A model generated the notes under the pieces. That model was not told the origin of the DNA. It saw nothing but the letters and a program-made list of their open reading frames with translations, and ran no database searches. Positions 25,437 to 58,269 of a DNA stretch of 64,000 nucleotides are shown here, piece by piece; position 1 is the stretch's first letter; every line of letters begins with the position of its first letter. This DNA comes from Eledone cirrhosa (Eukaryota), in assembly GCA_964016885.1 (NCBI GenBank), contig OZ024758.1, positions 6,820,001 to 6,884,000 of the forward strand, read 5' to 3'. A program made the position numbers and the translations under genes.

Positions 25437-25476
<40 letters not shown>

Positions 25477-28400
25477 TAAATAACAGATTAAAGTTTAAGC
25501 AAAGAATCGCTGCTTTCACCCATAACTGAATGATTTTTTTAGTTTCAGAAGACCCCGTTAAGGGTGAAAGCAGTGACTCTTTGCTTAAACTTTAATCTGT
25601 TATTTTAATAAATATTTGCTCTAGGGTTCTTATATATTTGATATATATTTATCCTTATCGAGCCCTCTTTGGATTTTAGTCTTCACATTTATTATTATTA
25701 CTATATATATATATATTCTTCATTAGGGGACTAATTGAAACAGAATTAATTCTGTAAACTAGTCACATAATAAAAACCAATACAATGTTACTCTACTTGC
25801 TGAAGCAGTGACTATTTAGTATTTAAGTTTAGCTATTACAAACAAATACACAGGTATATACACAGACATAAATAAATATCTAAAATACAAACCTGAAGAT
25901 CTTGAGTCAAGAGCCAACACTACTTCCAAACTGTAATTCTCACTGAGTGCTTTCAATAGCTTTTGCCCTTCTTTGTGGAAAAGAAATACCAATGGGATAC
26001 TGACATCACGTTGACCATCACCAGACATTGCAAACAGTGGAGATGATTCACTGCTTGTACCTTCATTATGATCTACAACCACATTTAATAGATTGTAAAG
26101 TATTTTATTATTATTCAATATGAAATAATGAAATACAGTAAATTCTAATTATGTTAGTAAATACATTTAGCACTCAATGAACAGGGAGACCTTTCAAGAC
26201 TAGAGCTTTCCATACGAAGTAGTATACAGATTAGAATCAAGCCCATGTTTCCATCTTCTCTCAAGCAGTCATTTACCATATATATCCAAATATAAGTCGA
26301 CTCCCTATTTTATGCCTGAGAAATAGACAAAAATCTAAACCCTGTTTATAAACCAAGGCAGGTAATCAACACATGTTTATATGGTGTGGTTTTGAAATTC
26401 TCATGAGTGAAGAATATATTTATGAAAATGATTTGAAACTCATAATCAATATCTTTTATTAGATATCATCATCATCATTTTTACATCCATTTTTCCACAC
26501 TTACATGGGTTGGACAGGTCCTTTTCATAAAAAGGGTTTCAGAATGAAGAACTGACAGCAAACTAATTATTTTTCTTGCAATATATTTTCTTTTAAAGAA
26601 AACATTTTAACTTTTAATCATATGAACTTCATTTAAACTATGGTTAGATAAATGTCACTACACTTGATAAAACCTACATTTTCATAAGGTAATTAGTTGA
26701 GGAGAGAAAATGCTCAAAACATTTACGTGTGTTCCCAGGCTGGTCAGATTAATGTTAGTGGAGGAAAACAAAAGATTTGTACAAATCTTTGTACCTAAAA
26801 GCACCAAAGGACAAAGTATTTTTTCACCCAACAATCATCACCCATATGTATTACATGTTCATACCAGCACAACCTCCTCTCCTGCATGTTACATCTGATT
26901 CCTCTTATATACAGTTTTCTCTCACCTCATCCATGCTGTCATTGATGAACACTAAACATTTCACACCCAACGGAGCCTGTACAACTCCTTTCTCTCCAGC
27001 CTTTATATATCTTTTACATTTACTGTCCTTGCCTCACTACTATGCAACTTTGTACACAGGCATCATACAATCCATCCTTTGCTTGGAAAGAAAATGCCTT
27101 TGTTGTCAACAATGGTAGTAGCTCCTTGAACATTTTTCACCCTGTTTTATTCTAGCTACTATCTTTCCTTCATTGTTAATTAGGCCACACAGATAAGAGA
27201 AGCTATCAACTACTTCTATGGAACCTTTGTTGGATTTGAAAATGTTTATTTCATAGGTGCTCTTACTACCAACTAGTCTAGTGCACTGCCACATACAAAG
27301 TCTACTGTCTCTGTTTCTCTGCCTGCAATCCTACCACACCACTTGGGTATTTATATTTTACACTGTGTACACCATATGGAAGTTTTTACTTATTTCTTGT
27401 CTGTATATTGAGCATAGTCAATTGTCTTGTCAACTTTGCTACTTACTAAAACTTTGTCTGTATTCTTACTCTAATAATCTTTGATCTCACCTTTTGAACT
27501 GCAATAACAGACAACCATTGATCACAGTCTGTAGTCAAATTGTCTATTGTTACTCTAATAATCTTTGGTCTAACCTTTCAAGGCTCCATTTTAACACTAT
27601 TAGACATTCTATTCAATATTTGAAGAAGAAAACATCTATATGCTCAACTTTCAACATCAGAAAAGAAAGAATATGGGAAAATAATATGCAGAAGGTGGTT
27701 CAAGCATATGTGATAATGTTGAAAATATTAAGGTTACTGGGAGTGTGATAATGTTGAAAATATTAAGGTTACTGACAAAATACTCACCAATCACAATGCC
27801 ACCTACTGCACCGGCCATTTCCACATTAGTTGCCTAAAATAAAAAATGTAAACAGAAAAGTTTTTAGACAAACATTCTAAGGAAAATATTGTTATATATA
27901 TTTGAAATATTGTTATATGTATAACATTGTATGTTTCAAATATTGTTATATGTATAACATTGTTATATGTATAACATTGTATATGTTTGAAATATGCTTT
28001 TATGTACAATAAAACAATATGTTTCAAATATTGTTATATGAAACTATTCAACCATGTTCCTCATTGTTATCCACTTTCACTTTCTCCATAGCAAATTTCT
28101 ACAGCCAGATTGCTTTCTTGCCGCCAACCTGAACTTTTCTGAATGCTAAAGGTTGACTAACTTAACAGTATTTTGAATGTGAAGATGTGTATGCAAACAC
28201 ACACACACAAACGACAGGCTTCCAAAGATTTCCATCAACTGAATTCACTCAAAGAATTGGTGAACCGAAGGTTATGGCAATACAGAGAGATTCTCCACCA
28301 AAGCAGAATAATTGATCCATGTTAGGTTACGTTTAAAGTCTGTCACAAATCCAGAGGCTCATCATACTACAACTTATCTCGGATTCATTGGAGTTATGTG

Positions 28401-37400: not shown

Positions 37401-40400
37401 GGAACTCATCCAATTGGAACAAGGAAACACTGTTTCCATTGGTCTTTCCATTGCTGGTACTATCTACTTGTTGCCACTCCTGGCAGAAAGGGCAACATAA
37501 AATAAAGTGTCTTGCTCAAGGACATAATGCATTGCCCGGTCCAGGAATCAAACTCACAAATTCACAATTGCGAATCCAATTCTTTAACCACTAAGCTACG
37601 TGCCTTCACTGTGGACATAGAACAATCATAATTTCCACAGTGACTCAACTGATATTCTATCTACATATAGCTATCATAAGATTACATTTTAATGTGTAGT
37701 AGTAGTAGTAGCAGCAGTAGCAGTAGATATACAGATTAATTGTAAAGAAGGACAAATTAACTAAGCAACAATTAACAACCAGAAATTAATACATAAATAC
37801 TTTTAGAGACATGTTTTCCATACGGATATTATTATCTTTACATTTGTTTGTTTTAACTCTTCCTATTCAGACATTTTTTCAAATTAACTACACTTGTATT
37901 TTCCACTCTATTCTTTTATTTTCATTTTAATTCTTGCAGTTTCCATGAAACTATCAATTTTGTTTACGATGATTTTGAACTGTGAAGGTCATATATAGTT
38001 TTCTTACTACTACTACCACTTTGAAGATAAACTCCGCCAGTTGCAGACTGCGCATCAACATGAGATATTTTCCTCCACAAAGTTCGATCACCAAGAGCAG
38101 AGTTTACAAGATTGAGATTTTGCTCCATCATATAAACAGTATCTGGGTTTCAACAGATAACTCCTACAGTAGCAGTTATTTCATAGATAATCAGTTTGTT
38201 TAAAATCATTGAATTTCTTCTTTAAGATCCAAATCACGCATGATTTTGAAAATGAGAAGTAACTTTTCTTGTAGAATGGTACAAAACATTCTTTATGCTT
38301 TAGAGCAGTCATGGGCAACCTGCGGCCTATGGGCAGCCCACGAAGCTTTCTCAATGGCTTGCCTAAGTCACCTAAGTGAAATCTTTCTGATTTTTTTTTA
38401 CTCCAACTTTTCAGTCATAATTTATCTTTCTATCATTTTTACAATCGAGGAAAATAACATGTACGAATTCTGAAGAAACAAATCACAACAACCTAATGTG
38501 GGCACGAATGTAAATTAGCGCGTGCAGCCCGCCTGATGATGAGCCATAGCTCATGCAGCCCGCTCTAAAGCAGGCATGGGCAAAAGGTTGCCTATGCCTG
38601 CTTTAAAGTCACTAACAACATGATAGTCTATGAACTAATGAAATAGCTTCGTGGTTGCTCAACCAGCTTGAAAATAAACAACCAAATCTCCCTCAAACCA
38701 CCTTTCTACTCTCTTAGAAAGGACACACAGGATAATAGTCCAGGTACACCACTCTTGGGGGAAACAGTAAAGATTGTGATAGTTCAATGAAGGATGTCTT
38801 GGAGTTAAACATATTATTCTAATAGGTTCTGCAACACGTATTTGAATAATCAACTTTCTGATTTCATGCAGCATCATTATTTTTAGAAATTTTCTAGAGC
38901 CTCTGTTCAGTCTTCTTTTTTCTCCTGAAGTAAAAAAAATGAAATTAAAAGAAAATGTTTATATAAACAATACCTCTGGGAGGAAATTATGACGTTTTAT
39001 TACTTGATAAAGCATCTCATGAGTCTCAATGGCAGGTTTGAGGTCACCCTTTAAGACCTAGAAAAAATACAAAAATATCTTATTAGAAAATCATTCAAAG
39101 AATATATTTACATATACTACATACATCATCATCATCTAACGCCTGCTTTCCCTGCTGCAAGAGTTGAACGAGTCTACATAGACCAAGTCAATACTGAAGT
39201 AGGGCTACTGACTTCCCAGACAGGCTGATGAGTGTGTATCTCACTTATGAATGGTCATATCAAAAGTGGTTGGCATTAGGAAGGGCATCCAGCAGTAGAA
39301 ACCAAGCCAAAATCAGTTCTGTGTGAGCAAGACATAGTTGTCCGACCTGGATCTCTCACAACGGGACAGAACATCCTACCCATGCTAGCATGGAAAATGG
39401 ACATTAAACAATGATGATAAGCCGAAACAAATACAAGCCGACACCACTATTTTATGTCTGAGAAATGGGCAAAAATCCAAAACTTATTTATGTAGAATTT
39501 GAAGTTGGTGAAAATCATCAAAATATTGACCCTGAATATAAGCCGACCTACTTCTACCATTGATTTTTTGGACACATATTCCTCAGCTTATATTTGAGTA
39601 AATACGGTATTTGGAATAGAGTGTACCTCATTAGAAATACAGTTACAAAAGGGTTAATAATACTGTATCTGTTATTTAGAATTCACTAACCTGAAGACCG
39701 GGCCAAAAAGCCAAAAGGGAATCCATAAAGTTTCGAGAGGTTGATTGTGGTTTGTGCATATGAACATCAACTAAGAGAGGTCCTTGGCTAATATACTTCA
39801 TCACAGCTTCATAATGCTAAAACAAATAAAAATAATCTAATTGAGACTACTAATTAAAAAAGAACATTATGTAACAATATGAGACGTAACAACATTTCAT
39901 TAAAGAGATGAGGCTTATATTGAAAAGGAATTTCACAGCATTTATTTATGAGGGTCAGCTGAAAAGTCCATAAACTGACTATGAAGGAGTGATGCTGGAG
40001 CTGTGAAATTTTGCATGCATTAATTTCAACTCTTCTTATTAATAATTGCATTGTTTCTTTCCAATTTCCAAGGACTATGTTGAAAAATAAACATCATTTG
40101 GTCATTCCATGAGAGTATCTTGGTCAGCCTATGAAGGAGTGATGCTAGAGCTGTGAAATCTTGCATGCATTAATTTCAAATCTACTTATTAATAACTACA
40201 TTGTTTTTATCCAGGGACTATGTTGAAAAATAAACCTTATTTGGTCATTCCATGAACTTTTCAGCCAACCCTCATACAATGGTGAGTTTCAAGGAAAAGA
40301 AATGGAATGAATCTCTGTCTGCTTCAATGACAAGTGCTCCAGTTGTTCAATCAATAAAAAGCCTGAACATTCCATAAGTCAAAATAGCTTAGATACTTTT

Positions 40401-43400
40401 TTCTTTGTACATGCAGCTATAGAAATCAGATAATTTCTCCTGATATTTTTTTTCAGGACTGGGTGTTTTCTTCACTAGAGTTCTTGTCACCTGACACCGT
40501 TATACAGAAATAAAGACATCCAACAATATAATCACAATAACTGCTGTAAAACATTTTATCAAACTTTATACAATCAAGAAAATATCTCACCTTATTGAAA
40601 CGCTTTAAGTAAGTGTTATCACCCAATAAGATATAACCCTTTAGTACATATTCATAGTAGGAATCTATACCTGCTCCAACTCCACTTTCTGAAGAACAAA
40701 AAATAATAAAAACAATAATAATAAGTTTATCAAAATGAAACATTATCAAAATTTATAAATAAGCAAACACATCAAATAGTCTTCAGCCACATCATCATTG
40801 TTTAATGTCTGCTAACTGTTAGAAAGGGTTGGATGGGTCACCATAGACCAAGTCAGTACTGAAGCAGGGCTACTGACCTGCCAGAGGGTCCAAGGGGTCT
40901 GTATCCTACTTTCATATGGTCAAACCATTGTTAATAGCTCAGAGGTCCATTTTAACTTGCAGTGGACAAAACAACCTGTCTAGTATTGGTGTCATTATCA
41001 AATGCACCCAGAACCCTTTGCAAAGTGTTGATGTCATCATAAAATACTGATTTAAAATGTTTATATTTATTTAAAAATCTTCTATAAATTTATGTAAGAA
41101 CCTTTGTTAAGTTATGTCCCAAACCGCTGATAAATAATGAAGAAGTTAAATATTTCATTAAATCCTTCCAAATTCTTAATTATTTTCAAAATTATTTGAA
41201 AATCATATCATCATCATCGTTTAACGTCCATCTTCCATGCTAGCATAGTAGGCAATGTTTTTCAATTGAAATATAGTAGTAAAAAGGTTAATGCAAACAA
41301 TCCGATTCCTCATCATCACTGTTTAATGTCCATGCTAGCAGAGTGGACAGGTTGTTACAGATCACATAAGCACTAAATCAGATATGTTAGGGGTAAAGGT
41401 GTCTTGTTTACATACATTCATACACTTTACAGAGAGTACTAGGTGCATTTTATCATGGCATCAACACAAGGGAGGTTGCCATGATCTTGACACAATTAGA
41501 GAGTCCTCTCAACCCTATGTTTGGCAGGTTTGCTATGGATGGATGCCCATCCTGACACCAACCAATTTACAGAGTGTACTGGGTGCATTTTATTATGGAA
41601 CAAGCACTAACAAGCTTGTTGTGCCCTGCACACAACTGGTTTGGCAAGTTTTCTACATCTGGATACTGTTCCTAAATGCCACTCTACTGAGTGAAATGGG
41701 GACATTTTCATGGCATATGCCCTAGAAAGGTTGTCATGACTGAAGAATCTTCTCAACCCTTTTGGCATAGTTTCTATGACAAGATGCACTTCCTAAAATT
41801 ACTCCTGATATACTTAAGTTAAAAAGAGATCATCATCATCGTTACTTAAGTAAATATAGATAACAACACTTACCCCTACGGACCCAGTCTCCATTGTGAA
41901 TATTAATTACAGTGCCAACTAAATCACTGACACGATGGCGCTGTTGCCAAAGATAGTCCATTGCTTTACGTGCCTTCTCCTGCAAAGAAAGAAAAATGAT
42001 TGGATATGGGGTAAAGAGGGAGACACACCAAGGCATATCAGGTATAAAGTAGCTTAGAAAAACAGATTGGGTAAAAATATGAAAGAAAAAAAACAACACA
42101 GAAAGCACAGCTATATATATATATACATGCATATATATATGTATGTCTTGTTCCTCGAGCTGATTGACAGTGAAACATATGTAATATATAATTAAATATG
42201 TATATGATCCAACATTGATTTTTTGTTCCCTTATATATATATATATATATAAATGATCATCACCGTTTAATGTCTACTTATCCACGCTGGCATGTGAGAT
42301 TGAAGAAAACAGAAGTAGATAATAGGAATCAATAATCATCTTTGGTACATTTTCTAATCAAAGTACAGTTTGAGGCCCTTCTCTATCATGTCTGACCAAG
42401 GATTTCCATCTGAAAGGTTTCTCTCCAAGGCCCTCATAATTAAAAAGGTAATTTAATATATAGTCTCCAGTGTTTTCTCATACAAATTGACATGACAAGG
42501 TCTTTTTCTGCCATGTCTGACCAAGGGTTTCCATCTGGAAGGTTACTCTCCAAGGTCAACTAAGGCAACTAGGCCACACACCTTCACTCATGTAAATTAA
42601 ATAGGTAATCACCTCAAATATATAGTCCCCAGTTAATCGACTGAGAGCTGCGAATTCCAGAATGATAGTTCCAGCACAAGCAGTACAGGTGTCTTTATGT
42701 CTGCTTCGAAGATCAGCATCAATACCATGTAACAAATTTACCTGAAATGACAAATAGTAAGTGTTCATATAAAAAAATGTTCAATAGAGCAGTGCCCCAG
42801 CATGGCCTCAGCTGGATGGCTGGAACATGTAAAAGAGTAAAATACTTGGAATTTTATCAACATCTTCATTACATTGAATTAAAAGTAAACTTAATAACAA
42901 TAAACACTTTAAGGCCATTTTTCCTGCTAAAGCAGGGGTTAGCTTTGAGGAAACCCATGGCAGGTTTCATATTCATCAAGGAAACATTTTTAAGGCAATG
43001 TTTTACGGTTGGTTACACTTCATGGCACCAATCATTTTAGTTGCCTCTTACAGCACACAGAGACACAGAATCATCACCATCGTCACCGTTTACTGTCTAT
43101 TTTCCAAGCTAACATGGGTTAAACAAGTTGTCCCGTTGTGAGACAGATTAGGTGACCATGTCTTGTTTATACAGGACTATTTCTGGCTTGGTTTCAATGG
43201 CTGGATGACTTTCCTAAAACCAACATTTACAGTGTGGAGTGGGTGCATTTTTTTTATGATGGCACTAAAATGACAAGTTGGACTGAGTACTTTTTCCTCA
43301 GGTCACCAACCCGACCACTTTACAGTGTGGACTGGCCGCTTTTTGTCATGTATGTATATATGTATTTATTTATGTTGACTCTGCTGAGTTCCTCCGTCCC

Positions 43401-45180
43401 TTTGCCAGGTCTTGTATTTCATCCCACAGGGTGTCCAAATATCATCTTCCTTACCAAGCTAGCTTGGTTGGGTTGCCAGTTTAGTCGCTGACGACACGAC
43501 CATGATACAGGTTGTACAGTAGCTATCCAAATAGTTCTTTTCTTTTTTTTTTCTTTTGTTTTCACCTGGGAGTGAAAGGCCCCCAGGTGTTGTCACAACA
43601 CCTTTCTAGAAGGAAACTCTAAAAAAAAACCTGTGGCTTTGGCAGCATCCAATGATGTTGACCAGTTCTCCTTTTCAGGTAGTGTTTTCGATGCACAGAG
43701 AGTGGTATTGGTCCAGTGCAAGGCCTTTCCCCACTTAACTTAAAAAACTTTCAAAGAACAGGCATTGCTTGTTCAGGATATGTTACAGGTTCGTGTGGTT
43801 GGCCGTAGCCTAAAAGTGCACCAAACTCTATAATCTGACAAGCAATTGCAATACTCTTAGTAGAGTTTGCAGCCTTCATTTATTTATGTATATATGTACG
43901 TACATATGTTTGCATGTATAAGTTATAATATATTGCTGTAATATATAAGTATACTTACTTTTGGATAAGGAATCCCAGTTGTAGTATTGAAGGCAGGAAG
44001 TAAACGCATACCTACTTCATGAGCCATGGCAAGCAATTCACTATTATACCAGAGCATTCCCTTTCGTTTTTTCTTTAAGAAATTTGCAACAACATGGCCT
44101 CCTAACAGACCACTGAAAATAAAGTTTTGTGATTTATTGTAGAAAGGCAAAAAACTGCAAATTTTAAATTGGAAATACTATATTTGCCGGTGTCTAAGAC
44201 GCTACCATTTTCATAAAATAAGTCTAAAAAATCTACCTTGCGCCCTGGAGGGCGAAGGTTGTTTATCATTTTTTTCTTTTCAAATTTTTGGTCAAAATTA
44301 GGGTGCATCCTCGAGGACGAAGCGTTTCGGCGCCAGGAAATACAGTACTCAAAAGGTAGACAGATGTATGTATATCATATATAATAAACCACATTCAATG
44401 AAGGGGTAATTTAGAACACTAAATAATATTTATGAATCATAATTTTCAGTCTATATCTACATCGAGAAGTGTAAATTAATATATTCACTAAACCCAACTG
44501 ATTCAATAGCAATCCACACTACCAAAACTGTGGGTATATACAGAATGTATCAAAATGAATCATCTGATTTCAAAAATTTATATTTTTTAAACAAATGACC
44601 ACATAAACATGAGGTAACTTGTACAATACATGTCTGAATATAGAGTCTTATTTACAACTTTTACAAATGCTCAATATGCCATCCTCTGCAGACACAGCTT
44701 ATATCTACAGAATAGTCAAACTCTGATAATCATCAGACATTTTGATACACCCTTTTTCATTTAATTAATGAGGAATTTGGAGCAATTATTTCATTAATGA
44801 AGTGTATTTGTAACATCATTAAACAAATGGATCTTATATCAAATTATATTGACAGTTTTTAATTTAAATAGGGATTGTATTTCATAGAACAAGGGACTTA
44901 TTTGCTGTTTTACGATTACATGTAATGTATACAAATTATGCTAACCTTAAAATCAAGCAAATTTAGAAACAAACAAACATACAATCAAATAAATATGTAA
45001 ACCAAAATATATAACGTACCCCAATACACGAATGTTAGTTTCAAAAACAGACACAACAACATCACTATCAAACTTTGTGTTTTTAATCACAAGTTTAACA
45101 GCATTTTCAAATTCATCCAACTGACCAAGTAGCTACAAGGAATAGAAAGGAAATCTATTAGAATGAATGACTGTGATAGA

Positions 45181-45222
<42 letters not shown>

Positions 45223-48200
45223 ATAATAATAAATTTGAAGACTAAAATCCAAAGATGGCTCGATAAGGATAAATATATATCAAATATATAAGAACCGTAG
45301 AGCCAAATATGTATTAAAATAACAGATTAAAGTTTAAGCAAAGAATTGCTGCTTTCACCCTTAACGGGATCTTCTGAAACTAAAATAATCAATCTGTGAA
45401 CGCAGAAGTAAATATTTCGAAAAACGTTGCAACCGAATGAAGACAGGAAGATGATACTTTGGTTCATGGGGACGTTCCCTGGCAAAGAACAGAAAAAAAC
45501 GAAGATAATACGTCATTATTTGGAGCGGTGAGGACAATTACATGCAAAGACAAAACCACGTTTATGGTATAACTGAAGTCGTATATATATGGACTGGGTG
45601 CTTTTAGTCATGTCACCAACAGGACCACTTTTCAGGGTGGACTGGGTGCTTTTTTTGTCCTCACAGGGCTGACCAGGTGCCTTTGTTGTGTCACCCACAC
45701 AACCACTTTACACTAGTTCTATTTAAAAGCATTGTTTATAAAAGCATGGTAAGCAAGACATTGGAATGTCAAATAATTTTAACTAATGAAAAAAGAACAT
45801 TAATGGGGGGCGGGGGGCGATTATTCAAGATATGAGAGTATATGAAAAAATATATAAATATATAAATGATGATGATGATGATATAAATAGTATCAAATTG
45901 ACAGAGTCATTAGATTGTTGACACAAATGCCTCATGGTATTAGAAGAGAAGATAAAACATAATATTATATAATGGTGGAAAGATTAGTTACTTCCTTGTT
46001 AGTCAGCATGGTACAGTTAGTAGTAGTAGTAGTAATATAGGCTATGATGGTTGAGAGAGTTGTGAACAGTGCACCAAATTGATGTAAACTTCCTGAATCT
46101 GTTATCAACATTCTTGTTTTTCATCTTCACAGTCTCATCTTCAGGATGCAGTGATGTTGGCATGTGTAGTGTTGCAACTGCTTCTTGTAAGTACAAACAT
46201 ATATATACATATACATGTATAGCATCTTTACTACATCATCATCATCATCATCATCATACTTGTTGTTTGTTTGTTTGATGTTGAATTTCATCAGATGTGA
46301 CAACATAAAATTTTCTCAATCCAGATTGACAGCTTTTGAAACACACCTCTGCAACCAATCAACAACATACAAGCTACCATGTCTTTTTTACAAAGGCAGA
46401 ATCCGTCAGGTATTTGTGCCAACCCTTACAGATGGTCATGAATCTTGGGTAGTGATCGAAAGAATATGATCATGAATACAAGCAGCCAAAATGGGGTTCC
46501 ACCCAAGGGCCTTTGGAGTAATGTTACACGATAAGAGTGCGTAGATCAGAGATTAGGGAGTCACTTCTCCGAATTGAGAGATCACAGCTCCAATACTATG
46601 GACATGTGGTTAGAATGTCTCAGGAAAAAAATCACTGGACAGATTTTATGGGCAAAACCAACTGGCAAGAGACCCAGGAGTAGATCCCGAGCAAGATGGT
46701 TAGATAACATCCATGAGATTGGCTGGTCTCACTTGGAAATCCAGCCGAATCAGTTAGAGACAGTTGCTTCTGAGAGGACTCGAAGGAGTGTTTGAGGACT
46801 CGAAGGAGTGTTTGAGAACTCTGCCTCCATGACCCTCTCACGAATAAGTGGGCGAAGAAGATTTCATCAGTAAACCTAGAATTGTTATAAAAACGAAGCA
46901 ATTTTCACTGGAACATAATTTTGTTGATTCCAGACATGGATCCATTTAGACAAGACTTACACCATATCTAAAACATGTCTTCAACTAAGATGTGTTAAAT
47001 GAGTAGCTAGTTCTTGACAGCACAAATCATGTTGAGTCACCATGTGAATATCACGACAGCAGTGACCCTGTTGAGTTGACATGTGAATATCACGACAGCA
47101 GTGACCCTGCTGAGTTGACATGTGAATATCACGACAGCAGTGACCCTGCTGAGTTGACATGTGAATACCACAACAGCAGTGACCCTGCTGAGTTGACATG
47201 TGAATACCACAACAGCAGTGACCCTGTTGAGTTGACATGTGAATACCACGACAGCAGTGACCCTGCTGAGTTGACATGTGAATACCACAACAGCAGTGAC
47301 CCTGTTGAGTTGATATGTGAATATCATCACAGCAGTGACCCTGTTGAGTTGACATGTGAATACCACAACAGCAGTGACTCTGTTGAGTGTTGGTGTCATG
47401 ACAAAAAACACCCAGCCTACACTGTAAAGTGGTCATGCTGGTGACACAACAAAAGGCACCCAGCACTCACTGTAAATGAGGTTGGTGTTAGGAAGGGCAT
47501 CCAGCTATAGAAACCAACCCAAAATCAGTTCTGTATGTGCAAGACATGGTCACCTGGCCTAGCATACGGGACAACCTGTCTAACCCATGCTAGCATGGAA
47601 AAATTGACGTGTGATGATGATGCCAACCCATATTTTATTCTAAGTATAGTATATGTGTGTGTGTATATATAGGTGTGTGTATGTATATATAATATATATA
47701 GTAAAACCTACTCCAGCCAGTAGGCATCTCTAACAAAATACACCCCGTCCCACCACCACCACCACCCCCACCCCATCCACACCACCCCGTTCTATGTAAA
47801 GTTATGTTGGTGCCGCGCCATCCAGGCCGAAACAAATGAGATCGTGTAGGCCGAAACAAATGAGATCGTGTAGGTGTCACAACAAAAAAACACACAGTCC
47901 ATGCTGTAATGTGGCCATGTAGGCAACACGGTAAAAACCTCCCAGACCCACACTGTAAATGTGGTTGGTGTTAGGAAGGGCATCCAACTGTAGAAAACCT
48001 GCCAGACAGTCCTATGCGAGCAAGACAATCACTCTTGCCTCAAGTGGGACTACCCCCGTCCAAACCCATGCAAGCGTGGAACACGGACGTTAAACGTTGA
48101 TGATGATGATGATGATGATGATATATACTATATATATATATTTATATGACTGGTATTTGTCAACCAGCTGCATATTGTTTATGAAAGATATAAACAAAAG

Positions 48201-49479
48201 TTGTACTTTCCTTCTTATTTTTTTAAGTGTTAATCTGAAGATGTTTGCAATAACTGACATTCACACAAGCATGCACACAGATACACATACAATGGGCTTC
48301 CTTGCCGTCTCTATCTACCAAGTTTGCTCACAGTGCCATCAGTGTAAATTGGTGTTTCAAATAAAAATACCAGGTTGAGCGACATCTCTTTACAACAAAG
48401 ATGAACTTAACATGTTCAATAGGCAGAGCTCAATAAAATAAATAAACAGGATTGATACGATCTACTGGAACCAATAAAAAACAAAAATGCTTCTTGAAAA
48501 ATAAGGAAACAATCCTATCATCATATCCCACCAAGGAAACAATGTACCAAGGGTCATTCCATTGCTGATACTGTCTATCACAACTCCTGGCAGAAGGAGC
48601 AATGTGAAACCAAATATTTTGCTCCAAAATATGTGCCACCTGGTCCAGAAATTGAACCAAACCACTAGGCCACACTTAATAGATTTAGTTTAACCTTTAG
48701 CACATTGAATTGTTTTAATTGACACTGCATTATGTATTAAAGGGAGATTACTCTATCAGTGACATAATGCACCTAGAGTGCCTAGAAGGTTAAACATATC
48801 ACATTTTTGTCTATTCTGTTATAGACATTGCCTCCACCTGCCAACACTGCATCAAAGGCCACAGTATTCAATGGCAGGATATGTTTTGAGGAAAATTTGG
48901 CTGCTATTTGTAGCAGGTTAAGAGGCTGCATCGAGAATTTCTGATGAGTTGAGTGAAGTATTTGAGTTTGGGGATATTGAAACTTGAAAATTAACTTTTA
49001 CCACTGCAAACAGTGGTGGTGGTGGTCCCTAACTAGCCTGGAATTTGAAAAGTCTGGGTTAATTGAAAAAATTGACCTCCAGTATTTGTCTTGTACTTTA
49101 TTTTATCAATCCCAGAAGGGTGACAGGCAACTCAAAATACAAAGAACTGGAAATAAATACATGAAATTTTATCTAATTATCCTGTTTTCTAGAAAAATTA
49201 AAATTAGTCTTCCTTACTGACTGCTTTCACATCAGAATCTAATTAAATAATTAATGCAGGATGTATATTAATCTTTAATTAAAGCCAATTTATAAAATAA
49301 TGCCAGTTAATTTCACTAGTCTCTGAATGAGCCAATAAAAATATCTTCTCCCCGGATATACTATTGGAATATAGCTGTTTTACAGTCAACAGTTAGTACA
49401 GCAGTCATGCTGCTTATCAAAAAACAAACAACTCCAAAATTAATGTGCACTTAGCTATATATATATATACACATATACA

Positions 49480-49535
<56 letters not shown>

Positions 49536-49571
49536 ATACATACTTGGTAACTTGTTATAAGTAAATTGTAC

Positions 49572-49611
<40 letters not shown>

Positions 49612-52600
49612 TCACGATTTTACATCTGCTTTTCCATGCTAGCATATGAATAATACATACTAGATTATAGATAAAATACAATATGAATACAACAATCTTA
49701 ACAAGTCCACCTGTTATGTCCATCCGATTATTGATTTTTATTATCTTACCCCTATTTATAATTTTGGGGTTCGTAGGCAACCTATTTGTCATATATATTT
49801 ATACCTGGAAACCTTACAGAAATAATGTAGAAGCATTCATCCTAACGCTAGCAGTTACTGATCTGATTGGATGTTGTATTGGAATACCAATGGAAATGGT
49901 GGAACTCTACACTGGATATGACTCAAAATATCTATGTAAATTCTACAAGTTCATTATTTTCAGTTGCAGTATCATGTCCTCTCTAATTCTTCTCATCATT
50001 GCCATTGAGCGATTTAGAAAGATATGCTGCCCATTAAAGCAACAAATGAATCAATATATATGCAAGGTTCTTATTGTTTTCTCAGCATTAATATCAATTA
50101 TAGCACCACTGCCAACTGTTTTCTCCACCATTATTGTTCTCCCCAAAAAAACCTTCAGCATCTGCCTCTACAAACCACATGGAGATTCTGTTTCCCGTTA
50201 CACTATAGCAGCATTGATTATTCATGGCATTATTTTAATAGCCATGACTGTACTTTATTCATATGTCCAGAACACTATTTTTCATCGTTATAAGAAAAAA
50301 CAAGGAAATGAAAGTAAAGAAGAAGCATGTAAACAAGAAAATATATATCGCACAAATGCAGTCCTTTTTTCAATATCCATTTTGTATTTTGTGAGCTTCT
50401 CACCGTCCCTTATTTTTGCTATCATATATCAATATTGTAAATACTCTGAATTGCTGGAGGTTTTTAAAACAGTCATCTATCGTCTTTGGATACTAAATTC
50501 CTCCTTAAATCCTATTGTGTATGGATTCTGTAACAAAATATTCCGGAAAAATCTTTTCAGTATATTTACGAGAAATAGAATGGACTCATCAGAAATATGA
50601 GAGAAACTTTGGGTGCATTTTACTCCACCACATAACTCAAAGAAAAGGTATGCTTAAAACTTTCAGAAGTGTTCTTTCCTGACAATATTTTTAAAGAAAT
50701 ACACTATGATTTGGATTAATTTCAAAAATAACCAAGAATTTGGAGGAATTGAGTGAAATAGTTACTGTTTATACTTATGCATATGTCACACCATTTCCAT
50801 GGAAAATCAACATACAGAACCAGCATTTGACTTATCTACTGGACCTACAAAACCTCAACACAAAAAAATATAAGACATTGTAAATGTATGTAAAATCTAA
50901 GTATGACTATTGTATCAGTGCAAATAATGCCCGTGTATATATGACAACGTTTTCATTGTTAAGTGCAAATAATGCCCGTGTATATATGACAACGTTTTCA
51001 TTGTTAAGTGCAAATAAAGCCTGTATATATGACAACGTTTTCATTGTTAAGTGCAAATAATGCCCGTGTATATATGACAACGTTTTCATTGTTAAGTGCA
51101 AATAATGCCCGTGTATATATGACAACGTTTTCATTGTTAAGTGCAAATAAAGCCTGTGTATATATGACAACGTTTTCATTGTTAAGTGCAAATAAAGCCT
51201 GTGTATATATGACAACGTTTTCATTGTTAAGTGCAAATAATGTCCGTGTATATATGACAACGTTTTCATTGTTAAGTGCAAATAATGCCCGTGTATATAT
51301 GACAACGTTTTCATTGTTAAGTGCAAATAATGCCCGTGTATATATGACAACGTTTTCATTGTTAAGTGCAAATAAAGCCTGTGTATATATGATAACGTTT
51401 TCATTGTTAAGCTGTCATTTGAACTTACACCTATTTTCATTCATAAAATTATAATTGTTTCTACTTTTGGCACAAGGCCAGCAATTACCCAGTGCAATTA
51501 CTGGTACTTTATTTTATCGACCCCGTAAGGATGAAAGGCAAAGTTAACCTCGGCTGGATTTGAACTCAGAATGGCAAGGGCTGTAACTCTATGCGTCAAA
51601 GCATGGCGTCCGACCCTCTACCGATACTAATGGAAGATTTTAATTTAAATCTGAACACTTAAAAATGTTTAGTTTGTATAAAAAACTAGAGACATTCCGA
51701 GATGTTAGGGAAAAGGTTATGCTCTATTTAAACACTTGAATAATTATTGAACCCAGTCACTGTTACTGTTTCCTTTATATTCCCAAATATCTCTCCTTTT
51801 CCTTTCTCTTCTACTTCAAGAATGTATGAATCTTATTTACAAGGTTTGTTCCAAAAGTAAGGGTACTGATTTTTTTTATTGAAATACATATTAGGCATAC
51901 ACGAAATTACAAGTTACCTCCTTCAAAATACAACCCCTAGGAAGTCACACAGTGGTTCCAGTTTTTTTTTCAATTGATCATAATAGTACCAGAAGTCATT
52001 TTTTATGCATGTCCTTAGCTTGTTGGTTACAATTTTTTCTATGCTTCCCACAGTCCCAAAACGATGACCCTTCAACTTTGATTCCATTCGCCAACACTAG
52101 ACCTGATGTCCCTCCCCCCTCCATACACACGCACATGTATTTCATGACTCATACACTGTTCATTTTCCTGACATTTGTACATTATTCTATGTACTATACA
52201 TGCACCTTTGATGAGTTGTAGTACACCTGAGCACTGTACACAATAATTTCATTATTATTATTATTATAGATCTGGGCTGTATGGATCATAATAGGTATGT
52301 TTATATGAACCTCTCAGCCTGATAGAAATATCAGCCAAATCTTTTTCAAATCACATCCTGTATTATGTATGTATGTATGTGTATAGATTAAAAGTTTAAG
52401 CGAAAAACTGCTGCTTTCACCCTAAGTGGGATCATCTGAAATAGTATTTTGCTTAAACTTTTAATCTGTACTAATTATAAATATTTTCTCTATGGGTTTA
52501 TATATATACAAGCCTTATCAAGTCTTCTTTAGATTTTAGTCATTGTATTCATTACTACTATATATATATATATATATATAATCATCATTGTTTAACGTCC

Positions 52601-55600
52601 ATCTACCACGCTAGCATGGGTTAGACAAGAATTGTCCCACTTGAGGCAAGATTGGTTGGGTAACCATGTCTTGCTTGTATAGGACTGTATCTGGCAGGTT
52701 TTCTACGGCTGGATACCCTTCCTAACACCAACCACATTTACAGTGTGGACTGGGAGCCTTTTTACCGTCTCTCCTACACAACCACTTTACAGTGTGGACT
52801 GAGGTACCAACATAACTTTACAGAGAAAGGGTGGTGTGAGTGAAAGTGGGAGGGTGGAGTAGGGCTAGTGGGTTGGGGTCTATATTTGGTTAAGAGGTGC
52901 CTATTGACTGTAGGTTTAACTTCGTACATAAGGGAAGAAAAATGTGAAACTTGAAGGCACCTTTCTCCCTCACCTATGTTCACCACTTCCAGCAGCATGA
53001 TTCCAGACTTGTCCCTTGTTAAATTCTTCTTCTGAAGAGATTTTATCACAAAATATCAGGACAGATAAATAAATAAGGTAACACATAATATCTTGCTTCG
53101 TCTTATTTTCTTGTTTGTCCATTTCACATTATTGTGGCTTTCAAACATCACATTTTTCTATACTATAAACAATGCTTCAAGTAAACTACAACTTTCTCAT
53201 GTATGCATGTGTGTATGTATATATATATATATATCATCATCATCATCATTTTACGTCCGCTTTTCCCTGCATATATATATATATAGTTCAAAAGGATAAA
53301 AAAACAACGCAGGAGTCAATGGTACGTAGTGTTATTAGCTTCATATATTATATATTTTGATGATGATGTTATTTATTTTGAAAACAATATGTTAATGTCA
53401 GTATGAGTGGCCAGTTATGGCTGGTTTAAACAGAATGAGGAGAGAGAATTCTAGCCGGATATGGCTGGTTTAAATCACACATTCCTGTTTTATGTAAGTA
53501 TGCTGTGCTGAAAAAGTGCCATGGAAAAGCAGATGTAAAATAATGCTGATAATCTATGTATGAATGAGGAAACACATTTTTCTGGCCATGGAGGGAAAAT
53601 ATAAAACATTTGTTTAAATTTGAAAGTGAGGTTAAAGTTGTCCATATACCAACATTGCAGATATGTCAATAAATGCTGTCTAGTCTATATTTAATTAATC
53701 ACATTGCCAATGGCAGCAGTTTCTGCTTCAGCTGTTAAATGATGCAGGAAAAAGAGGCTTGGTGTGTCACCGGATGGCAGGTGGACCCATTGGAAGGAGT
53801 GTTTGAGAACTCTACCCCCACGACCCTCTCAGGAATAAATGGGTGAAAAAGAAAAAAAGATATTGCCCCTAGATGCACTTTTTATTCATATTCAACTGAC
53901 CATTTCATTTGAGCCATTTGTGCTTGATATAGCTAGCAATCTCTCTATGGACAGAAATTGAGAACATTTGTTCTCAAATGACTCCAAAAGGTTACAAAAC
54001 TAGTCAGGTATAAACCCAAACCACAAATTGTTTCCTAGCATGTATCAATTGTTTATGTAGATGTCACGACAAAAAAACACACAGTCCACGCTGTAATGTG
54101 GCCGTGTAGGTAACGTGGTAAAAACCTCCCAGTCCACACTGTAAACGTGGTTGGTGTTAGGAAGGGCATCCAGCCATAGAAAACCCGCCAGACAGTCCTG
54201 AGCAAGACAACCAATTTTGCATCAAGTGGGACAATTCCTGTCCAGACCCATGCTAGCGTGGAAGATGGATGTTAAACGAAGATGATGATGATGAAGTCAT
54301 ACAATATAAAAAGAAATTTAACTGTTTTTGCAGGCTGAATAGCGTTATAAATCATTTTGGATGTTAGAACAATAATCTTTCTTAACTGTCTTGCTTTTTC
54401 TTTGATGTTGAGTTGTAATATAAGGTTAATCAATATACAATCAGCATTGTTTTAAGGCCATTGTCTCTGCTAAATCAAAAGTTAACCCTGTGGTCCTCAT
54501 GATAGACATAACCATATCATGAGGTCCCTTTAAGGCCATTTTCTCAGCTAAATAAGGGGTTAACCTTATGGTTTCCATGACAAACATAACCATACTCATC
54601 ATGAGGTCCTTTTTGTAACAATGTTTTATCGATGGATGCCCTTCCTCATGTCAACCCATTTGGTCACCACTTATGACATGAAGAAAGATAGTTAATTTAT
54701 ATATAAAAAAAAGATAAATACAAAAAGGTTAATATAAAATAAAAGTACTCACAGCTAAGGAATCCAGAGAATCTATTAAGGTTAGAGAGAAACTGAAAGA
54801 GAAACACATTATGAAATTATAGAAACAATAAAAAAATCAAATCACAATAATATAGTTTCGGAATATAAGCTAAGGAATATGTGACCCCAAACACGCACAC
54901 ACAGCCAAACAAAACTGTATTTTTGTTCATGCAGACATTGTTTTTAGTTAGTTAGAGAGAGGGGAAGGTGGAGTGAGAAGGAAAGTAGTATTTCCCTCCC
55001 TCTAAATAGAGAATCAGACAGACAAACAGACAGAGATCTTATAGTATAGATTAACTAAAGCGTGCAAGGGAGACAACTGTTAGATTATGGATAGGCTGCT
55101 AAATGATGAAAAAGAGTTATGTGCCCTCAGTGGAAGATACTTGTGGAAGACATGAGAAGAATGAAGTCAGATCTCGTGATGCCTATAAACTCAGTCTCAG
55201 CATCCGAAATCAAGGAAGCTTTTTCCTGGATTTTTTTGCCTTGACATCTACCTCTCTATTTCTCTCTCACTCCGGTTCTCTGTCTGCCCCCTAGACCTAC
55301 GCATTCACTTCACTTCAGGTTCTTTCACATGAAAATCTACACACAAAGCAGAGTTAAGCTAAACCTTTACTTTCATTTTTATTTCATTTTCTCACAGTCA
55401 ACTATTGATGTTACCATAAATCTGGAGACCAGTCTGGCTGATGACATATACCACCCTCTCACCCCCTCACTCCCACCTTCCAGTGTGAAGGTATCCAGAT
55501 GGGCCTTTGTGATATGCTTAATGGCACTTCAATGTGCGGATTGTAACTATGCTGGAGATGGCCGACGGTGGCTCTGTGAGACAACATAGTTGGTCACCCG

Positions 55601-57207
55601 AATAAATTTTGAATGCTGGGTGGAGACAAGGTCTCTGTATGCCACAGTGATAATGGTCTGACAGGGAAAGCAGTTTCTACAAATAAAATGAGATTGCACA
55701 GGACAGATACAGGCTCCATAAACCATGCAGAAGGTCTAGGCTTTCACAAGACTCTCCTACACCTAGTTTCCTTAATAAGATTACACAGGTGAGATATGTG
55801 CTCCGTAAACCATGCAGAAGGCAACATATCTAGGCTCTCACAAGCCACTCTTCTACACCTAGTTTCCTTAAGGACCACCAGATGACAGATTGTGGTACTC
55901 TGTCAAAGGTTTTCTCTAGATCAACAACAGCTATATAGCTAAGAACTTCTTTTGTGGATACCCTTTCACCCCCTTGTAGTTAAATAAGAAAGCAAAGCTG
56001 TCTTACTTCCCCATGCATTCATCTATGTCTCCACGAGATTTTTCTTGACCTCGATAGCGTTCTTTGCAACTGAGAGGCATCAATTCATCAGCAGGGTAGG
56101 CATGTTTCTGCAAAATAAAAGAGTAAAAAGTAAAATCAATAATTTGCAAGAAAGACATAATAACGTTGAAAATTGATCTAAAAAAAATTGAACCTCACAA
56201 AAAGAGATGAAACACGATAGAAATATAAGGAGTGACTTTGTATTGGAGAGGACTTGCCTAACCTATGTGAGCATGAAAACATGGACATTAAAACAATGAT
56301 GATGATCAAGTTAGATACACAGCATATCACCAATTGTCTCTCTTCTGAAAGGTCCAATGTTCACAGATCTGATTCCAGTACTACTTCTTCACACTTTCCC
56401 TCCTCCACTGGTACCATCCACTAACAGTAAATGACACCATCCATTTGTACTACAAGGGTCAGCGGAAAAGTTCATATGCTGACTATGAAGGAGTGATGCT
56501 AGAGCTATGAAATCTTGCATGAATTAATTTCAACTCTTCTTCTTAATAAATAACTGCATTGTTTCTTTCCAGAGACTATGTTGAAAAATAAACCCCATTT
56601 GGTCATTCCATGAGAGTATCTTGGTCAGCCTATGAACTTTTTAGCTGACCCTCGTACATACTTAAACCACAGCAATCATGTCTCCAGCACACTTCAGCCG
56701 ATGCCCTTTATCTCAAATCACTTTGTGTTCATTTACACCAGTGAAGGGCCATCTTGCTCTCTTCTGTGAACATGTCTTATCTACTTTCATCTTCTGAGAA
56801 TGTAAGAACAATGTATGACACAGGAAACCAAGTGCAGGTTACATCCCCATGATGGGTTGCCATCTTTCTGGTTTAGGGAGTCCATGTCTCTCTTGTTGAT
56901 TTTAAGTGACATGGAATCTTCATCATCACTGTTTAATGTCTATTTTCCATACTTGCATGTGTTAGACAGGTCGTCCATGTCAAGAGTGACTGTAAATTTG
57001 ACCAGGAAGTTTTACAGCTGGATGCCCTTCCTAATACAAACCACATTTACAGTGTGGAAGAGAAATACTTGATAAATATAAATATGTCCATGAGGAATAT
57101 CTGCTATTGTCAAAGTTCACTCAAGTGATAAATTAGAGATGATTTGTTAATCAGTACTCACCATATAAGAATTGTATGCATGGTTAAACATCTCAACAAC
57201 TTGATCC
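22889..57207 (-). CDS. EDEM3: ER degradation-enhancing alpha-mannosidase-like protein 3: 21 coding exons (GH47 + PA domain + long tail, KTEL); first exon not found in window
   Basis: Phase-consistent exons (3292 nt) with [89 protein letters not shown]; PA domain [19 protein letters not shown]; C-terminal KTEL. Confidence 0.96.
24631..25310. repeat. 46-48-bp minisatellite, about 14 copies
   Basis: Unit ACAACCACTTTACAGTGTGGGCTGAGCGCTTTTTGTTGTGTCACCATC. Confidence 0.95.
25893..26072 (-). CDS. EDEM3: EDEM3 PA-domain exon ([19 protein letters not shown]...IPLVFLF...DSRSS)
   Basis: TTGTAG| acceptor, G|GTTTGT donor; 180 nt, phase 1/1. Confidence 0.92.
26790..27320 (-). mobile_element. Degenerate RTE-like RT C-terminal remnant
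   Basis: [11 protein letters not shown]-like motif; many stops. Confidence 0.5.
27788..27833 (-). CDS. EDEM3: EDEM3 PA-domain exon ([15 protein letters not shown])
   Basis: TTTTAG| acceptor, G|GTGAGT donor; 46 nt, phase 0/1. Confidence 0.92.
29233..29352 (-). CDS. EDEM3: EDEM3 PA-domain exon ([14 protein letters not shown]...[12 protein letters not shown])
   Basis: AATTAG| acceptor, AAG|GTAATA donor; 120 nt, phase 0/0. Confidence 0.93.
30254..30363 (-). CDS. EDEM3: EDEM3 exon ([12 protein letters not shown]...[12 protein letters not shown]...SP)
   Basis: CTTTAG| acceptor, CCA|GTAAGT donor; 110 nt, phase 1/0; AGPAQFG motif. Confidence 0.93.
31387..31690. mobile_element. pogo/Tigger-type MITE with TA target-site duplication, nested in another MITE (about 31203-31701)
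   Basis: TA|CAGTGGAACCT...AGGTTCCACTG|TA inverted termini; related internal piece at 34385-34605. Confidence 0.8.
31780..31861 (-). CDS. EDEM3: EDEM3 exon ([27 protein letters not shown])
   Basis: TTTCAG| acceptor, G|GTAGAT donor; 82 nt, phase 0/1; DAEDG..FMQEMIE motif. Confidence 0.92.
32337..32475. repeat. 32-bp tandem repeat, 4 copies
   Basis: Unit AGTTCTAGATTGGAAGCAGCAAGACATAAGAG. Confidence 0.9.
32649..32781 (-). CDS. EDEM3: EDEM3 exon ([26 protein letters not shown]...[12 protein letters not shown])
   Basis: TTTCAG| acceptor, GAG|GTAAGC donor; 133 nt, phase 2/0. Confidence 0.92.
33591..33775 (-). CDS. EDEM3: EDEM3 linker exon ([11 protein letters not shown]...ETCPNI...[17 protein letters not shown])
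   Basis: Open 185 nt, phase 0/2 fits both neighbours; TCPN motif; acceptor (TAAAG) and donor (AA|GTATTT) are weak, so boundaries are less certain. Confidence 0.72.
34645..34807 (-). CDS. EDEM3: EDEM3 exon ([17 protein letters not shown]...FTTEAHLLP...HHSK), end of GH47 domain
   Basis: TTCCAG| acceptor, AAG|GTTTGT donor; 163 nt, phase 2/0. Confidence 0.93.
36048..36172 (-). CDS. EDEM3: EDEM3 exon ([11 protein letters not shown]...[19 protein letters not shown])
   Basis: TTACAG| acceptor, CA|GTAAGT donor; 125 nt, phase 0/2. Confidence 0.95.
36904..36987 (-). CDS. EDEM3: EDEM3 exon ([28 protein letters not shown])
   Basis: poly-T CAAAAG| acceptor, AAG|GTAAAT donor; 84 nt, phase 0/0; LRPE motif. 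Confidence 0.95.
37087..37340. repeat. About 52-bp degenerate tandem repeat
   Basis: Repeated TTTCCACAGTAACACAGTTGATATTGTCTACTGTGGACATA. Confidence 0.85.
38974..39057 (-). CDS. EDEM3: EDEM3 exon ([28 protein letters not shown])
   Basis: TTCTAG| acceptor, GAG|GTATTG donor; 84 nt, phase 0/0. Confidence 0.95.
39691..39816 (-). CDS. EDEM3: EDEM3 exon ([15 protein letters not shown]...[12 protein letters not shown])
   Basis: TTTTAG| acceptor, CAG|GTTAGT donor; 126 nt, phase 0/0. Confidence 0.95.
40591..40688 (-). CDS. EDEM3: EDEM3 exon ([23 protein letters not shown]...FNK)
   Basis: CTTCAG| acceptor, AAG|GTGAGA donor; 98 nt, phase 1/0. Confidence 0.95.
41874..41979 (-). CDS. EDEM3: EDEM3 exon ([11 protein letters not shown]...GDWVRR)
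   Basis: TTGCAG| acceptor, G|GTAAGT donor; 106 nt, phase 0/1. Confidence 0.95.
42613..42741 (-). CDS. EDEM3: EDEM3 exon (VNLLHG...[26 protein letters not shown])
   Basis: TTTCAG| acceptor, GAG|GTGATT donor; 129 nt, phase 0/0. Confidence 0.95.
43959..44112 (-). CDS. EDEM3: EDEM3 exon (GLLGGHVVA...[15 protein letters not shown])
   Basis: TTTCAG| acceptor, AAA|GTAAGT donor; 154 nt, phase 2/0. Confidence 0.95.
45020..45132 (-). CDS. EDEM3: EDEM3 exon ([12 protein letters not shown]...[11 protein letters not shown]), carries the catalytic Glu of the FET motif
   Basis: TTGTAG| acceptor, GG|GTACGT donor; 113 nt, phase 0/2. Confidence 0.95.
46385..46860 (+). mobile_element. Second non-LTR retrotransposon family 3' end ([14 protein letters not shown]); related pieces at 16670-16875 (-), 53790-53850 (+), 57300-57960 (-)
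   Basis: G.RP.GRP..RW-type motif and shared tail CTGCC.CCA.GACCCTCTCA.GAATAA.TGGGCGAAGAAG. Confidence 0.65.
47030..47390. repeat. 39-bp minisatellite, about 9 copies
   Basis: Unit GACATGTGAATA(T/C)CAC(G/A)ACAGCAGTGACCCTG(T/C)TGAGTT. Confidence 0.95.
49683..50600 (+). CDS. Intronless class A (rhodopsin-like) orphan GPCR, 305 aa, nested antisense in an EDEM3 intron
   Basis: Seven hydrophobic segments; GN in TM1, LAVTD in TM2, Cys at top of TM3 with IERF (DRY-type), Cys in ECL2, NPIVY in TM7, F(R)K helix 8; N-glycosylation sequon NTT at residue 2. Confidence 0.93.
   Translation: MNTTILTSPPVMSIRLLIFIILPLFIILGFVGNLFVIYIYTWKPYRNNVEAFILTLAVTDLIGCCIGIPMEMVELYTGYDSKYLCKFYKFIIFSCSIMSSLILLIIAIERFRKICCPLKQQMNQYICKVLIVFSALISIIAPLPTVFSTIIVLPKKTFSICLYKPHGDSVSRYTIAALIIHGIILIAMTVLYSYVQNTIFHRYKKKQGNESKEEACKQENIYRTNAVLFSISILYFVSFSPSLIFAIIYQYCKYSELLEVFKTVIYRLWILNSSLNPIVYGFCNKIFRKNLFSIFTRNRMDSSEI
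50918..51410. repeat. 45-bp minisatellite, about 11 copies, just downstream of the GPCR
   Basis: Unit GTGCAAATAATGCCCGTGTATATATGACAACGTTTTCATTGTTAA. Confidence 0.95.
52090..52266 (+). mobile_element. CR1-like LINE 3' tail with (ATT)n terminus
   Basis: Same sequence family as 2532-2641 and 4083-4250. Confidence 0.7.
54753..54792 (-). CDS. EDEM3: EDEM3 exon ([13 protein letters not shown])
   Basis: TTTCAG| acceptor, GCT|GTGAGT donor; 40 nt, phase 2/0; GH47 TL.DSLD motif. Confidence 0.93.
56007..56107 (-). CDS. EDEM3: EDEM3 exon ([33 protein letters not shown])
   Basis: TTGCAG| acceptor, AA|GTAAGA donor; 101 nt, phase 0/2. Confidence 0.95.
57162..57207 (-). CDS. EDEM3: EDEM3 exon ([15 protein letters not shown]), first visible coding exon
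   Basis: TTCTAG| acceptor, ATG|GTGAGT donor; 46 nt, phase 2/0. Confidence 0.92.
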
Positions 57208-58269
57208 CTAGAAAACAAAAACAAAAATTGAAATATATTAGTACAAAATTGTAGTGGAGTGGGGTTGGTTTATGTTTGAGTGGGGTCGGGTGAGCTAATA
57301 TTGGTTGGGGGTACCCCTTGGTCTCCTGCTAGTCAGTTTTGCCCACAAAATCTGTCCAGCAATTCTTTCCTGAGACATTCTAACCACATGCCCATAGTAT
57401 TGGAGCTGTTATCTCTCAATTCGGAGAAGTAGCGGCTCTACATGGAATAACTCTGTGATCTCCAAGCTACACACTCTATCAAGTAACGTTACACCAAAGA
57501 CCCTTCAGAAGAACCCCATTTCGGCCGCTTGTATTCGCAATCGTATTCTTTCGGTCATTACCCAAGATTCATGACCAAAGGTAACGGTTGACATGAAAAC
57601 CAAATTAAAAATAATGAGTTTGGCTTTTATGTCTACCTCCCCTCTTCTGATAACTGACTGAATACTGAAGCTGGCACATTACTGCACCAACTCCTGCAAT
57701 TCTTGCACTTAATTCAGCCTCCTCCCTTCCATCACTTGTGAACATAGGCTCTGAGATACTTGAACTTCTCTACCTGCTTCAGTGGAACTCCATTTATATG
57801 TAGAGAGCACTGCACAGGCTTTCTTGGGAGGATGAGTATCTCAGTTTCTGCAGCACTGATTTTCATTCCAGCCATGCAGCACAGCACTCGGTATCAAACC
57901 TATTGAGTGCAAGTCGGAGATCCCCGTCTGTTGAGTTAAGTAAAACCATGTCACTTGCAAATTCAAGTCGAAGACACTGCCTATAATTTTCAAACCACTT
58001 GGACAATAATCAAATATGTTGACGGATTTAGTAATATAACTAACTTTCTCATTATTAAACTGGTGTTTAAAACATAATAAAGGTTCTTACATAGAATTAC
58101 GAAAGCTTTTTAGATAGTGGTGGGAAATTCTCAAGAGAGTTGGACAGCAGAAAGTCTTCAGAGGTGAACCCCCCTCAAGCAACATGAATGGACCTGTTAT
58201 TTTTATCTAAAGACATTTTTTCCAATTCCACCCCGCCCGTCCCTTCAATCTATCTAATTTCTCATTCTT

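Follow-up and report, generated by a model that had tools for sequence, protein, structure and literature searches.

The window analysed here, a stretch of 64,000 nucleotides from contig OZ024758.1 of the Eledone cirrhosa assembly GCA_964016885.1 (positions 6,820,001 to 6,884,000, renumbered from 1 throughout), carries an uninterrupted receptor-like reading frame within an intron of EDEM3 and on the strand opposite to it. This arrangement raises the question of what the frame encodes, whether it is a working gene, what it may respond to and how it came to lie at this address. The reading that we favor, with a probability of roughly 0.68, is that of a single-copy member of a published cephalopod receptor expansion (group 1), intact and likely functional, with a likely small peptide-type ligand and a place in EDEM3 that is likely an incidental relocation.

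The frame is translated into 305 residues with no internal stops and was matched by the Pfam 7tm_1 profile over residues 32-280 (E 2.9e-28; 99.5 bits compared to a cut-off of 30.5; profile positions 1-260 of 260). When the host intron was shuffled 500 times, the longest open frame had a mean of 107 codons and a maximum of 218. By use of a residue numbering of its own, set from motif anchors, the receptor was found to keep G32-N33 (N1.50), LAVTD60 (D2.50), C85 (C3.25), E109-R110-F111 (R3.50), C161, P241 (P6.50) and N276-P-I-V-Y280 (NPxxY). The TM4 Trp (W4.50), the TM5 Pro (P5.50) and W6.48 are absent, TM6 reads YFVSFSP, and TM1 begins near residue 9. W4.50, P5.50 and W6.48 are common in class A GPCRs and are not obligatory. 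Also absent are the aminergic Asp at 3.32 (I92 in the receptor; Val, Ile, Thr or Ala in its Octopus relatives) and the opsin Lys at 7.43 (I270 in the receptor; Ile in 17/17 Octopus copies). Judged by its sequence, the ORF encodes a class A GPCR, and the original prediction of an uninterrupted 305-aa class A frame on the plus strand was exact in its coordinates.

Table 1. Features of the window around the receptor gene (positions are those of the window).
Feature	Position	Strand	Description
Receptor gene	49683..50600	+	Orphan GPCR of class A (rhodopsin family), 305 aa, with one exon; placed in cephalopod group 1 expansion, Scaffold18646-type subfamily
EDEM3 host gene	22889..57209	-	21 exon matches by tblastn with O. 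sinensis and Argonauta hians EDEM3
EDEM3 host intron	45133..54752	-	9,620 bp, GT-AG (GTGAGT...TTGTAG), phase 0
EDEM3 exon preceding host intron	54753..54794	-	42 bp
EDEM3 exon following host intron	45020..45132	-	With VFETNIR (VFETNIRVL) motif
Young interspersed repeat in host intron	47691..48148		High-copy, 97-98% to best-matching copies
(TA)n microsatellite	49456..49609		Ends 74 bp upstream of ATG
Old interspersed repeat	50674..50910		Just 3' of receptor stop codon; 74-88% to copies elsewhere
45-bp tandem repeat	50909..51411		11.2 copies

The placement of the receptor antisense inside a 9.6-kb EDEM3 intron that precedes the FET exon, as proposed earlier, was upheld with both ends of the intron confirmed. 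The VFETNIR motif of that exon is one that we take to carry the catalytic Glu of GH47. EDEM3 may have one more 5' exon upstream of the matched region, and its other 19 introns are about 0.6-2.0 kb by approximate boundaries, the host intron being about five times as long as the next longest. Microsatellites, two tandem arrays and interspersed repeats both young and old make up the host intron content. The description of the receptor as lying amid decayed repeats thus fits the old repeat beyond its stop codon but not the young high-copy element. The first AATAAA hexamers 3' of the ORF (51013, 51146, 51191 and 51371) fall within the 45-bp tandem repeat.

A search of 5.8 billion proteins returned 25 matches, the top 16 of which came from O. 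bimaculoides or O. sinensis (49-56% identity), followed by proteins at 34% or less; a profile search added a 17th Octopus relative, and the alignments were nearly full-length. Compared to these 17 Octopus proteins, the best paralogue in the E. cirrhosa genome reached only about 35% identity. Group 1, as described by Ritschard et al. (2019, PMC6408891), comprises 63 class A receptors of three cephalopods and falls within a clade of molluscan sequences that carry neuropeptide receptor annotations. In supplement 2 of that paper, each of the 11 O. bimaculoides relatives looked up is assigned to class A group 1; seven of these are in tandem on Scaffold18646, a clade that the authors give as one example of duplication followed by dispersal, with dispersed members reported too. 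The next named relative, A0A0L8I745, also belongs to group 1. No orthologue from squid or cuttlefish was identified, nine of the ten clusters that come next in similarity being unlabelled. In a 68-row tree built with a quick tree search, the receptor and the 17 Octopus proteins formed one clade (SH-aLRT 99) with the receptor outside all Octopus copies at an SH-aLRT of only 89. The clade was recovered at 100/99 in a careful 27-row tree with 13 of the 17 Octopus proteins, in which the place of the receptor within the clade was left open. The sister lineage consisted of an E. cirrhosa gene on contig C4 and one further protein. The receptor sits on a long branch (0.42-0.46), and it is separated from the Octopus copies by 0.75-0.91, well above the value of about 0.5 between another E. 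cirrhosa receptor (L003) and O. bimaculoides P0047; hidden paralogy between the receptor and the Octopus copies is therefore possible. By its position in our own trees and by accession look-up, as distinct from the full data set of PMC6408891, the receptor belongs to the published group 1 expansion and, within it, to the Scaffold18646-type subfamily. Origin in a cephalopod lineage-specific GPCR expansion, as envisaged in the original prediction, was thereby borne out, and the novelty claimed for the receptor was given up, since a published group with intact Octopus members already holds this subfamily. Names given to the Octopus relatives at NCBI (NPY, NPFF, neuromedin U, melatonin and angiotensin receptor-like) are automatic and mutually inconsistent and were set aside as functional evidence.

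The missing motifs were examined in an alignment of the receptor with 56 relatives (17 Octopus proteins, 19 E. cirrhosa paralogues and 20 library representatives). W6.48 was present in 0/56 (Phe or Tyr in all but two), Ser occupied position 6.47 in 51/56, and any TM4 Trp or any TM5 Pro was detected in 8/56 and 3/56, respectively, so that each of the three sets has these residues rarely or not at all; the missing motifs are therefore not a divergence of this gene. The receptor has 32 residues before N1.50 and the 14 full-length Octopus proteins have 31, all 14 of the latter beginning with M-N-x-T/S. As read from this alignment, the motif pattern and the short N-terminus are inherited family traits: the absence of the TM4 Trp, the TM5 Pro and CWxP was correctly noted before, but these are clade-wide states and not losses by this gene. 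Coding regions of one exon are likewise the rule in the family. Each of 19 E. cirrhosa paralogue loci (the best 19 of 75 other matches) holds one ORF of 313-420 aa, and gene spans in O. bimaculoides equal three times the protein length plus the stop codon in 9 of 11 cases. Intronlessness is thus uninformative on retroposition, and the proposal of a retroposed copy finds no support in these counts. There is no A-tract in the 123 bases that follow the receptor stop, and no parent copy for retrocopying was found among the best candidates scored in DNA and protein searches of the E. cirrhosa genome. Because the gene has one exon, duplication through either DNA or RNA could have carried it over in one piece, and both routes would fit.

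The receptor resembles the Scaffold18646 clade of O. bimaculoides (e.g., Ocbimv22011400 and A0A0L8HMG6) in its 49-56% identity, length of about 305 aa, single coding exon, short N-terminus with an N-x-T sequon, lack of W4.50, P5.50 and W6.48, and pocket residues. By contrast, it differs from this clade in copy number and genomic address. At least 11 O. bimaculoides genes (seven in tandem) and at least 5 O. sinensis proteins were found in the subfamily compared to one copy in E. cirrhosa, where the next protein match is at about 35% and the ORF DNA matches only itself. No second or decayed copy was found on the receptor's contig (C19) or elsewhere among the best candidates scored (the best 129 of 176 and the best 129 of 194 by protein and the best 40 of 595 by DNA), and no local tandem cluster of paralogues was found around the receptor on C19. 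The mapped Octopus copies lie on contigs other than that of EDEM3: of ten annotated copies with contig data, spread over five contigs (identified by their lengths as 120,472,873 with four copies, 207,928,902 with one, 117,080,279 with three, and 192,492,730 and 57,524,431 with one each), none shares the contig of EDEM3 in its own species, with EDEM3 located on contig 213,406,131 in O. sinensis and on contig 199,874,329 in O. bimaculoides (in the latter as a 208-aa model). The same nesting at Octopus EDEM3 loci was thus not seen among the annotated copies. P0047 shares its O. bimaculoides contig with the tandem cluster, and the clade of P0047 includes E. cirrhosa genes on C6; the Octopus cluster chromosome may therefore correspond to C6 rather than to C19. 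This correspondence, which is read from one marker (P0047), hints at a relocation into EDEM3 in the E. cirrhosa lineage. An order of events in which the EDEM3 intron was the original home, the receptor is the unexpanded ancestral state, and the Octopus copies escaped and multiplied more than tenfold, several gaining sucker or skin expression, seems decidedly unlikely; if true, the locus would be a living 'before' state for the passage from a peptide-type receptor to a peripheral sensory repertoire.

What is specific to this genome is the single copy, compared to the Octopus radiation, together with a nested address that no annotated Octopus copy shares. The genomic address of the subfamily changed between lineages, which fits the published model of duplication and dispersal. 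As a single-copy member, the receptor offers the easiest route to the ligand of the subfamily; gene finders may miss it because of its intronic position.

At columns conserved in outside paralogues, the receptor agreed with the Octopus majority in 49 of 52 cases, compared to 107 of 206 for the other columns (Fisher P 2.4e-9). Nonsense changes amount to 5.8% of missense changes in the receptor coding sequence, and 0.2-0.46 neutral changes per site would be expected to yield 3.6-8.2 stops, the chance of zero stops under neutrality being 0.03-0.0003. These two indirect tests, of column conservation and of a frame kept open over a long branch, indicate that the receptor is under purifying selection, as had been thought probable, and a very recent loss of function would be compatible with both. 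A non-synonymous variant, Y45H (position 49815), was present in 2 of 4 sequencing runs; Octopus has Gln or Lys at this residue. One of these four runs, all from one study (X4; 88 million letters of unrecorded kind, from a different sample), gave joint-free contigs across 49936-50270 and from 50322 to past 50900 and is left aside as evidence of transcription. Some of these features would suit an intact-looking pseudogene, that is, a relocated copy that was recently silenced: the Y45H variant, the long terminal branch, the microsatellite about 70 bp from the ATG, the repeats that start 74 bp past the stop and the fact that no promoter was identified. We nevertheless regard silencing as very improbable, given the strong constraint pattern, the open frame across that same branch, a start context (MN.T) and length that match intact Octopus members, and no other copy of the subfamily found in the genome. 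On this sequence evidence, the receptor is likely functional. An address within another gene has precedent among human GPCR genes, where LPAR6 lies in RB1, and GPR18 and GPR183 lie in UBAC2. The GPR18/UBAC2 nesting is not stated in passages of PMC13205159, and a literature search returned nothing relevant on surveys of nested GPCRs and no paper on the present host-guest pair (EDEM3, octopus and intron). In two broader studies, genes lying inside others are as a rule small, lack introns and arose through duplication, with 74% in human and 78% in mouse on the opposite strand (PMC8467205), and nested genes of Drosophila are on the opposite strand in 71% of cases and evolve faster (PMC3814207). 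The present pair is like these nested genes in its short intronless guest, opposite strand, long intron and conserved host. The nested antisense layout is common in animals, and neither it nor the missing motifs are surprising in themselves. That the nesting is functional, with opposing transcription of the receptor and EDEM3 allowing one to tune the other, has only geometry in its favor at this locus, where the EDEM3 transcription unit overlaps the whole receptor gene in antisense, along with the transcriptional interference discussed for nested genes generally in PMC8467205. Antisense orientation is, however, the majority state of nested genes, and the ten Octopus copies with contig data, none of which lies on the contig of EDEM3, imply that the family persists without this host; a regulatory role of the nesting is thus extremely unlikely.

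A more plausible alternative to the favored reading concerns the ligand, for which structural models were used. The AlphaFold model, generated from 106 sequences (pLDDT 92) in place of an earlier and poor 17-sequence model (pLDDT 56), has seven TM helices and H8 with an ECL2 beta-hairpin (strands 149-152 and 159-162), and the two cysteines that usually form the TM3-ECL2 disulfide are in place. The top Foldseek matches were orexin, opioid, chemokine, NPY, neurotensin, galanin and CCK receptors (TM-score 0.7-0.8), and by sequence the closest solved structure was that of melatonin MT1 (E 2.6e-13), ahead of those of NPY2, galanin, bradykinin, NPFF and CCK receptors. Melatonin receptors are small-molecule receptors, and fold likeness to peptide receptors is expected across much of class A. 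Matches to characterized neuropeptide receptors (orexin/allatotropin, CCK/sulfakinin and NPY/NPF) were spread over many types; the trees contained no characterized receptor. With molluscan orphans automatically annotated as orexin, CCK, NPFF or NMU receptor-like, and with the structures of the human peptide receptors OX2R (7xrr), NPY2R (7yon) and CCK1R (7mbx) and of melatonin MT1 (7vgy), the receptor shares the 7TM fold, ECL2 hairpin, TM3 and ECL2 cysteines, E/DRY and NPxxY; it differs from them in lacking W4.50, P5.50 and CWxP, and identity in structural alignment is 16-23%. The nearest molluscan sequences to group 1 are mostly annotated (automatically) as neuropeptide receptors in PMC6408891. 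Charged near-pocket residues, positioned by motif numbering (E71, E74, K89, K262 and R267), are conserved in 15-17 of the 17 Octopus copies, and E71, E74, R267 and W269 are found in all 17. From these features we expect a ligand that is peptide-type or otherwise polar, with coupling to G proteins in the normal way, and fold and relatives together point to a peptide-type receptor over a chemoreceptor. That the receptor senses external molecules as a chemoreceptor of sucker, skin or olfactory epithelium is unlikely, even if a minimal N-terminus, one exon, rapid evolution and Octopus tandem expansion resemble chemoreceptor families and lineage-specific class A expansions are treated as candidate chemoreceptors in PMC11886862. 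Among 11 O. bimaculoides homologues with tissue figures, which are proportions and not levels, the top tissue was sucker in two (accounting for 73% of the expression of one of them) and skin in two, so that the chemosensory lead raised originally is weakly supported by 4/11 but not by the other 7/11, which peak in axial nerve cord (three), viscera, ovary, embryo or brain (one each). By analogy with these homologues, the receptor would fit mixed peripheral signalling and a sensory role only partly. The single copy in this genome provides no repertoire, and the pocket positions hardly vary among the Octopus copies. In PMC11886862, cephalopod models are without the TM3-ECL2 disulfide, the cysteines of which are kept here, and class A expansions are reduced in cephalopods. 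Membership in the lophotrochozoan chemosensory-like expansions of that study would call for a species-specific multi-copy clade and sensory-tissue expression; seen here are one copy and homologues of mixed tissues.

In the working proposed for a peptide-type receptor at this locus, its own promoter would drive transcription on the strand opposite EDEM3. The receptor sequence would be spliced out of the EDEM3 pre-mRNA, and the EDEM3 protein would be unaltered. A polar ligand would sit in a pocket lined by E71 (2.61), E74, K89 (3.29), K262 and R267. Coupling of the receptor to a heterotrimeric G protein would run through the ERF, P6.50, Y5.58 and NPxxY switches, all of which are intact, and would probably take place in tissues that are peripheral or mixed.

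Related receptor loci elsewhere in the E. cirrhosa genome were also inspected. The nearest paralogue (C4:51367166) and SBDS stand head to head, the paralogue lying outside SBDS at about 2.5 kb from the first SBDS exon, and the region C4:51358694-51368107 is a possible shared promoter region of a receptor paralogue and a housekeeping gene. By a rough nesting check of 130 kb flanks at C4, C6 and C10, reductase exons were detected about 16 kb from the C6 paralogue, no host exons were recognized around the C10 paralogue, and hosts with long introns would be compatible with these results. On C6, an uninterrupted LINE-type reverse transcriptase frame of 1,136 codons (L033:3477-6884, minus strand; RVT_1 and zf-RVT) lies about 3 kb from the L003 receptor and adjoins a tandem group 1 receptor cluster. 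A different subfamily has expanded on C2 (C2:147747298-148096982), where a tandem cluster holds more than 10 related intronless receptors, some near-identical (L013, L019 and L020).

Within the window, the last exon of EDEM3 (22889-23953, minus strand; about 355 aa) gave no Pfam match in the 327 aa scanned and, in a homology search, matched only EDEM3 of O. sinensis (75%) and of Argonauta hians (61%); it ends in KTEL, a likely ER-retention signal. Downstream of EDEM3 and on the same strand is a dynein heavy chain gene (159-18096) with DHC_N1 and DHC_N2 exons that runs on into contig positions 6810001-6820000. An isolated Dynein_C piece with stops on both sides (20846-21082, plus strand; profile 100-171, E 3.4e-24) lies just upstream of this dynein gene on the opposite strand and is possibly a duplicated exon, a pseudogene fragment, a local inversion or an assembly error. 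Decayed LINE reverse transcriptase fragments (19286-20332, plus strand) are located between the dynein gene and EDEM3.
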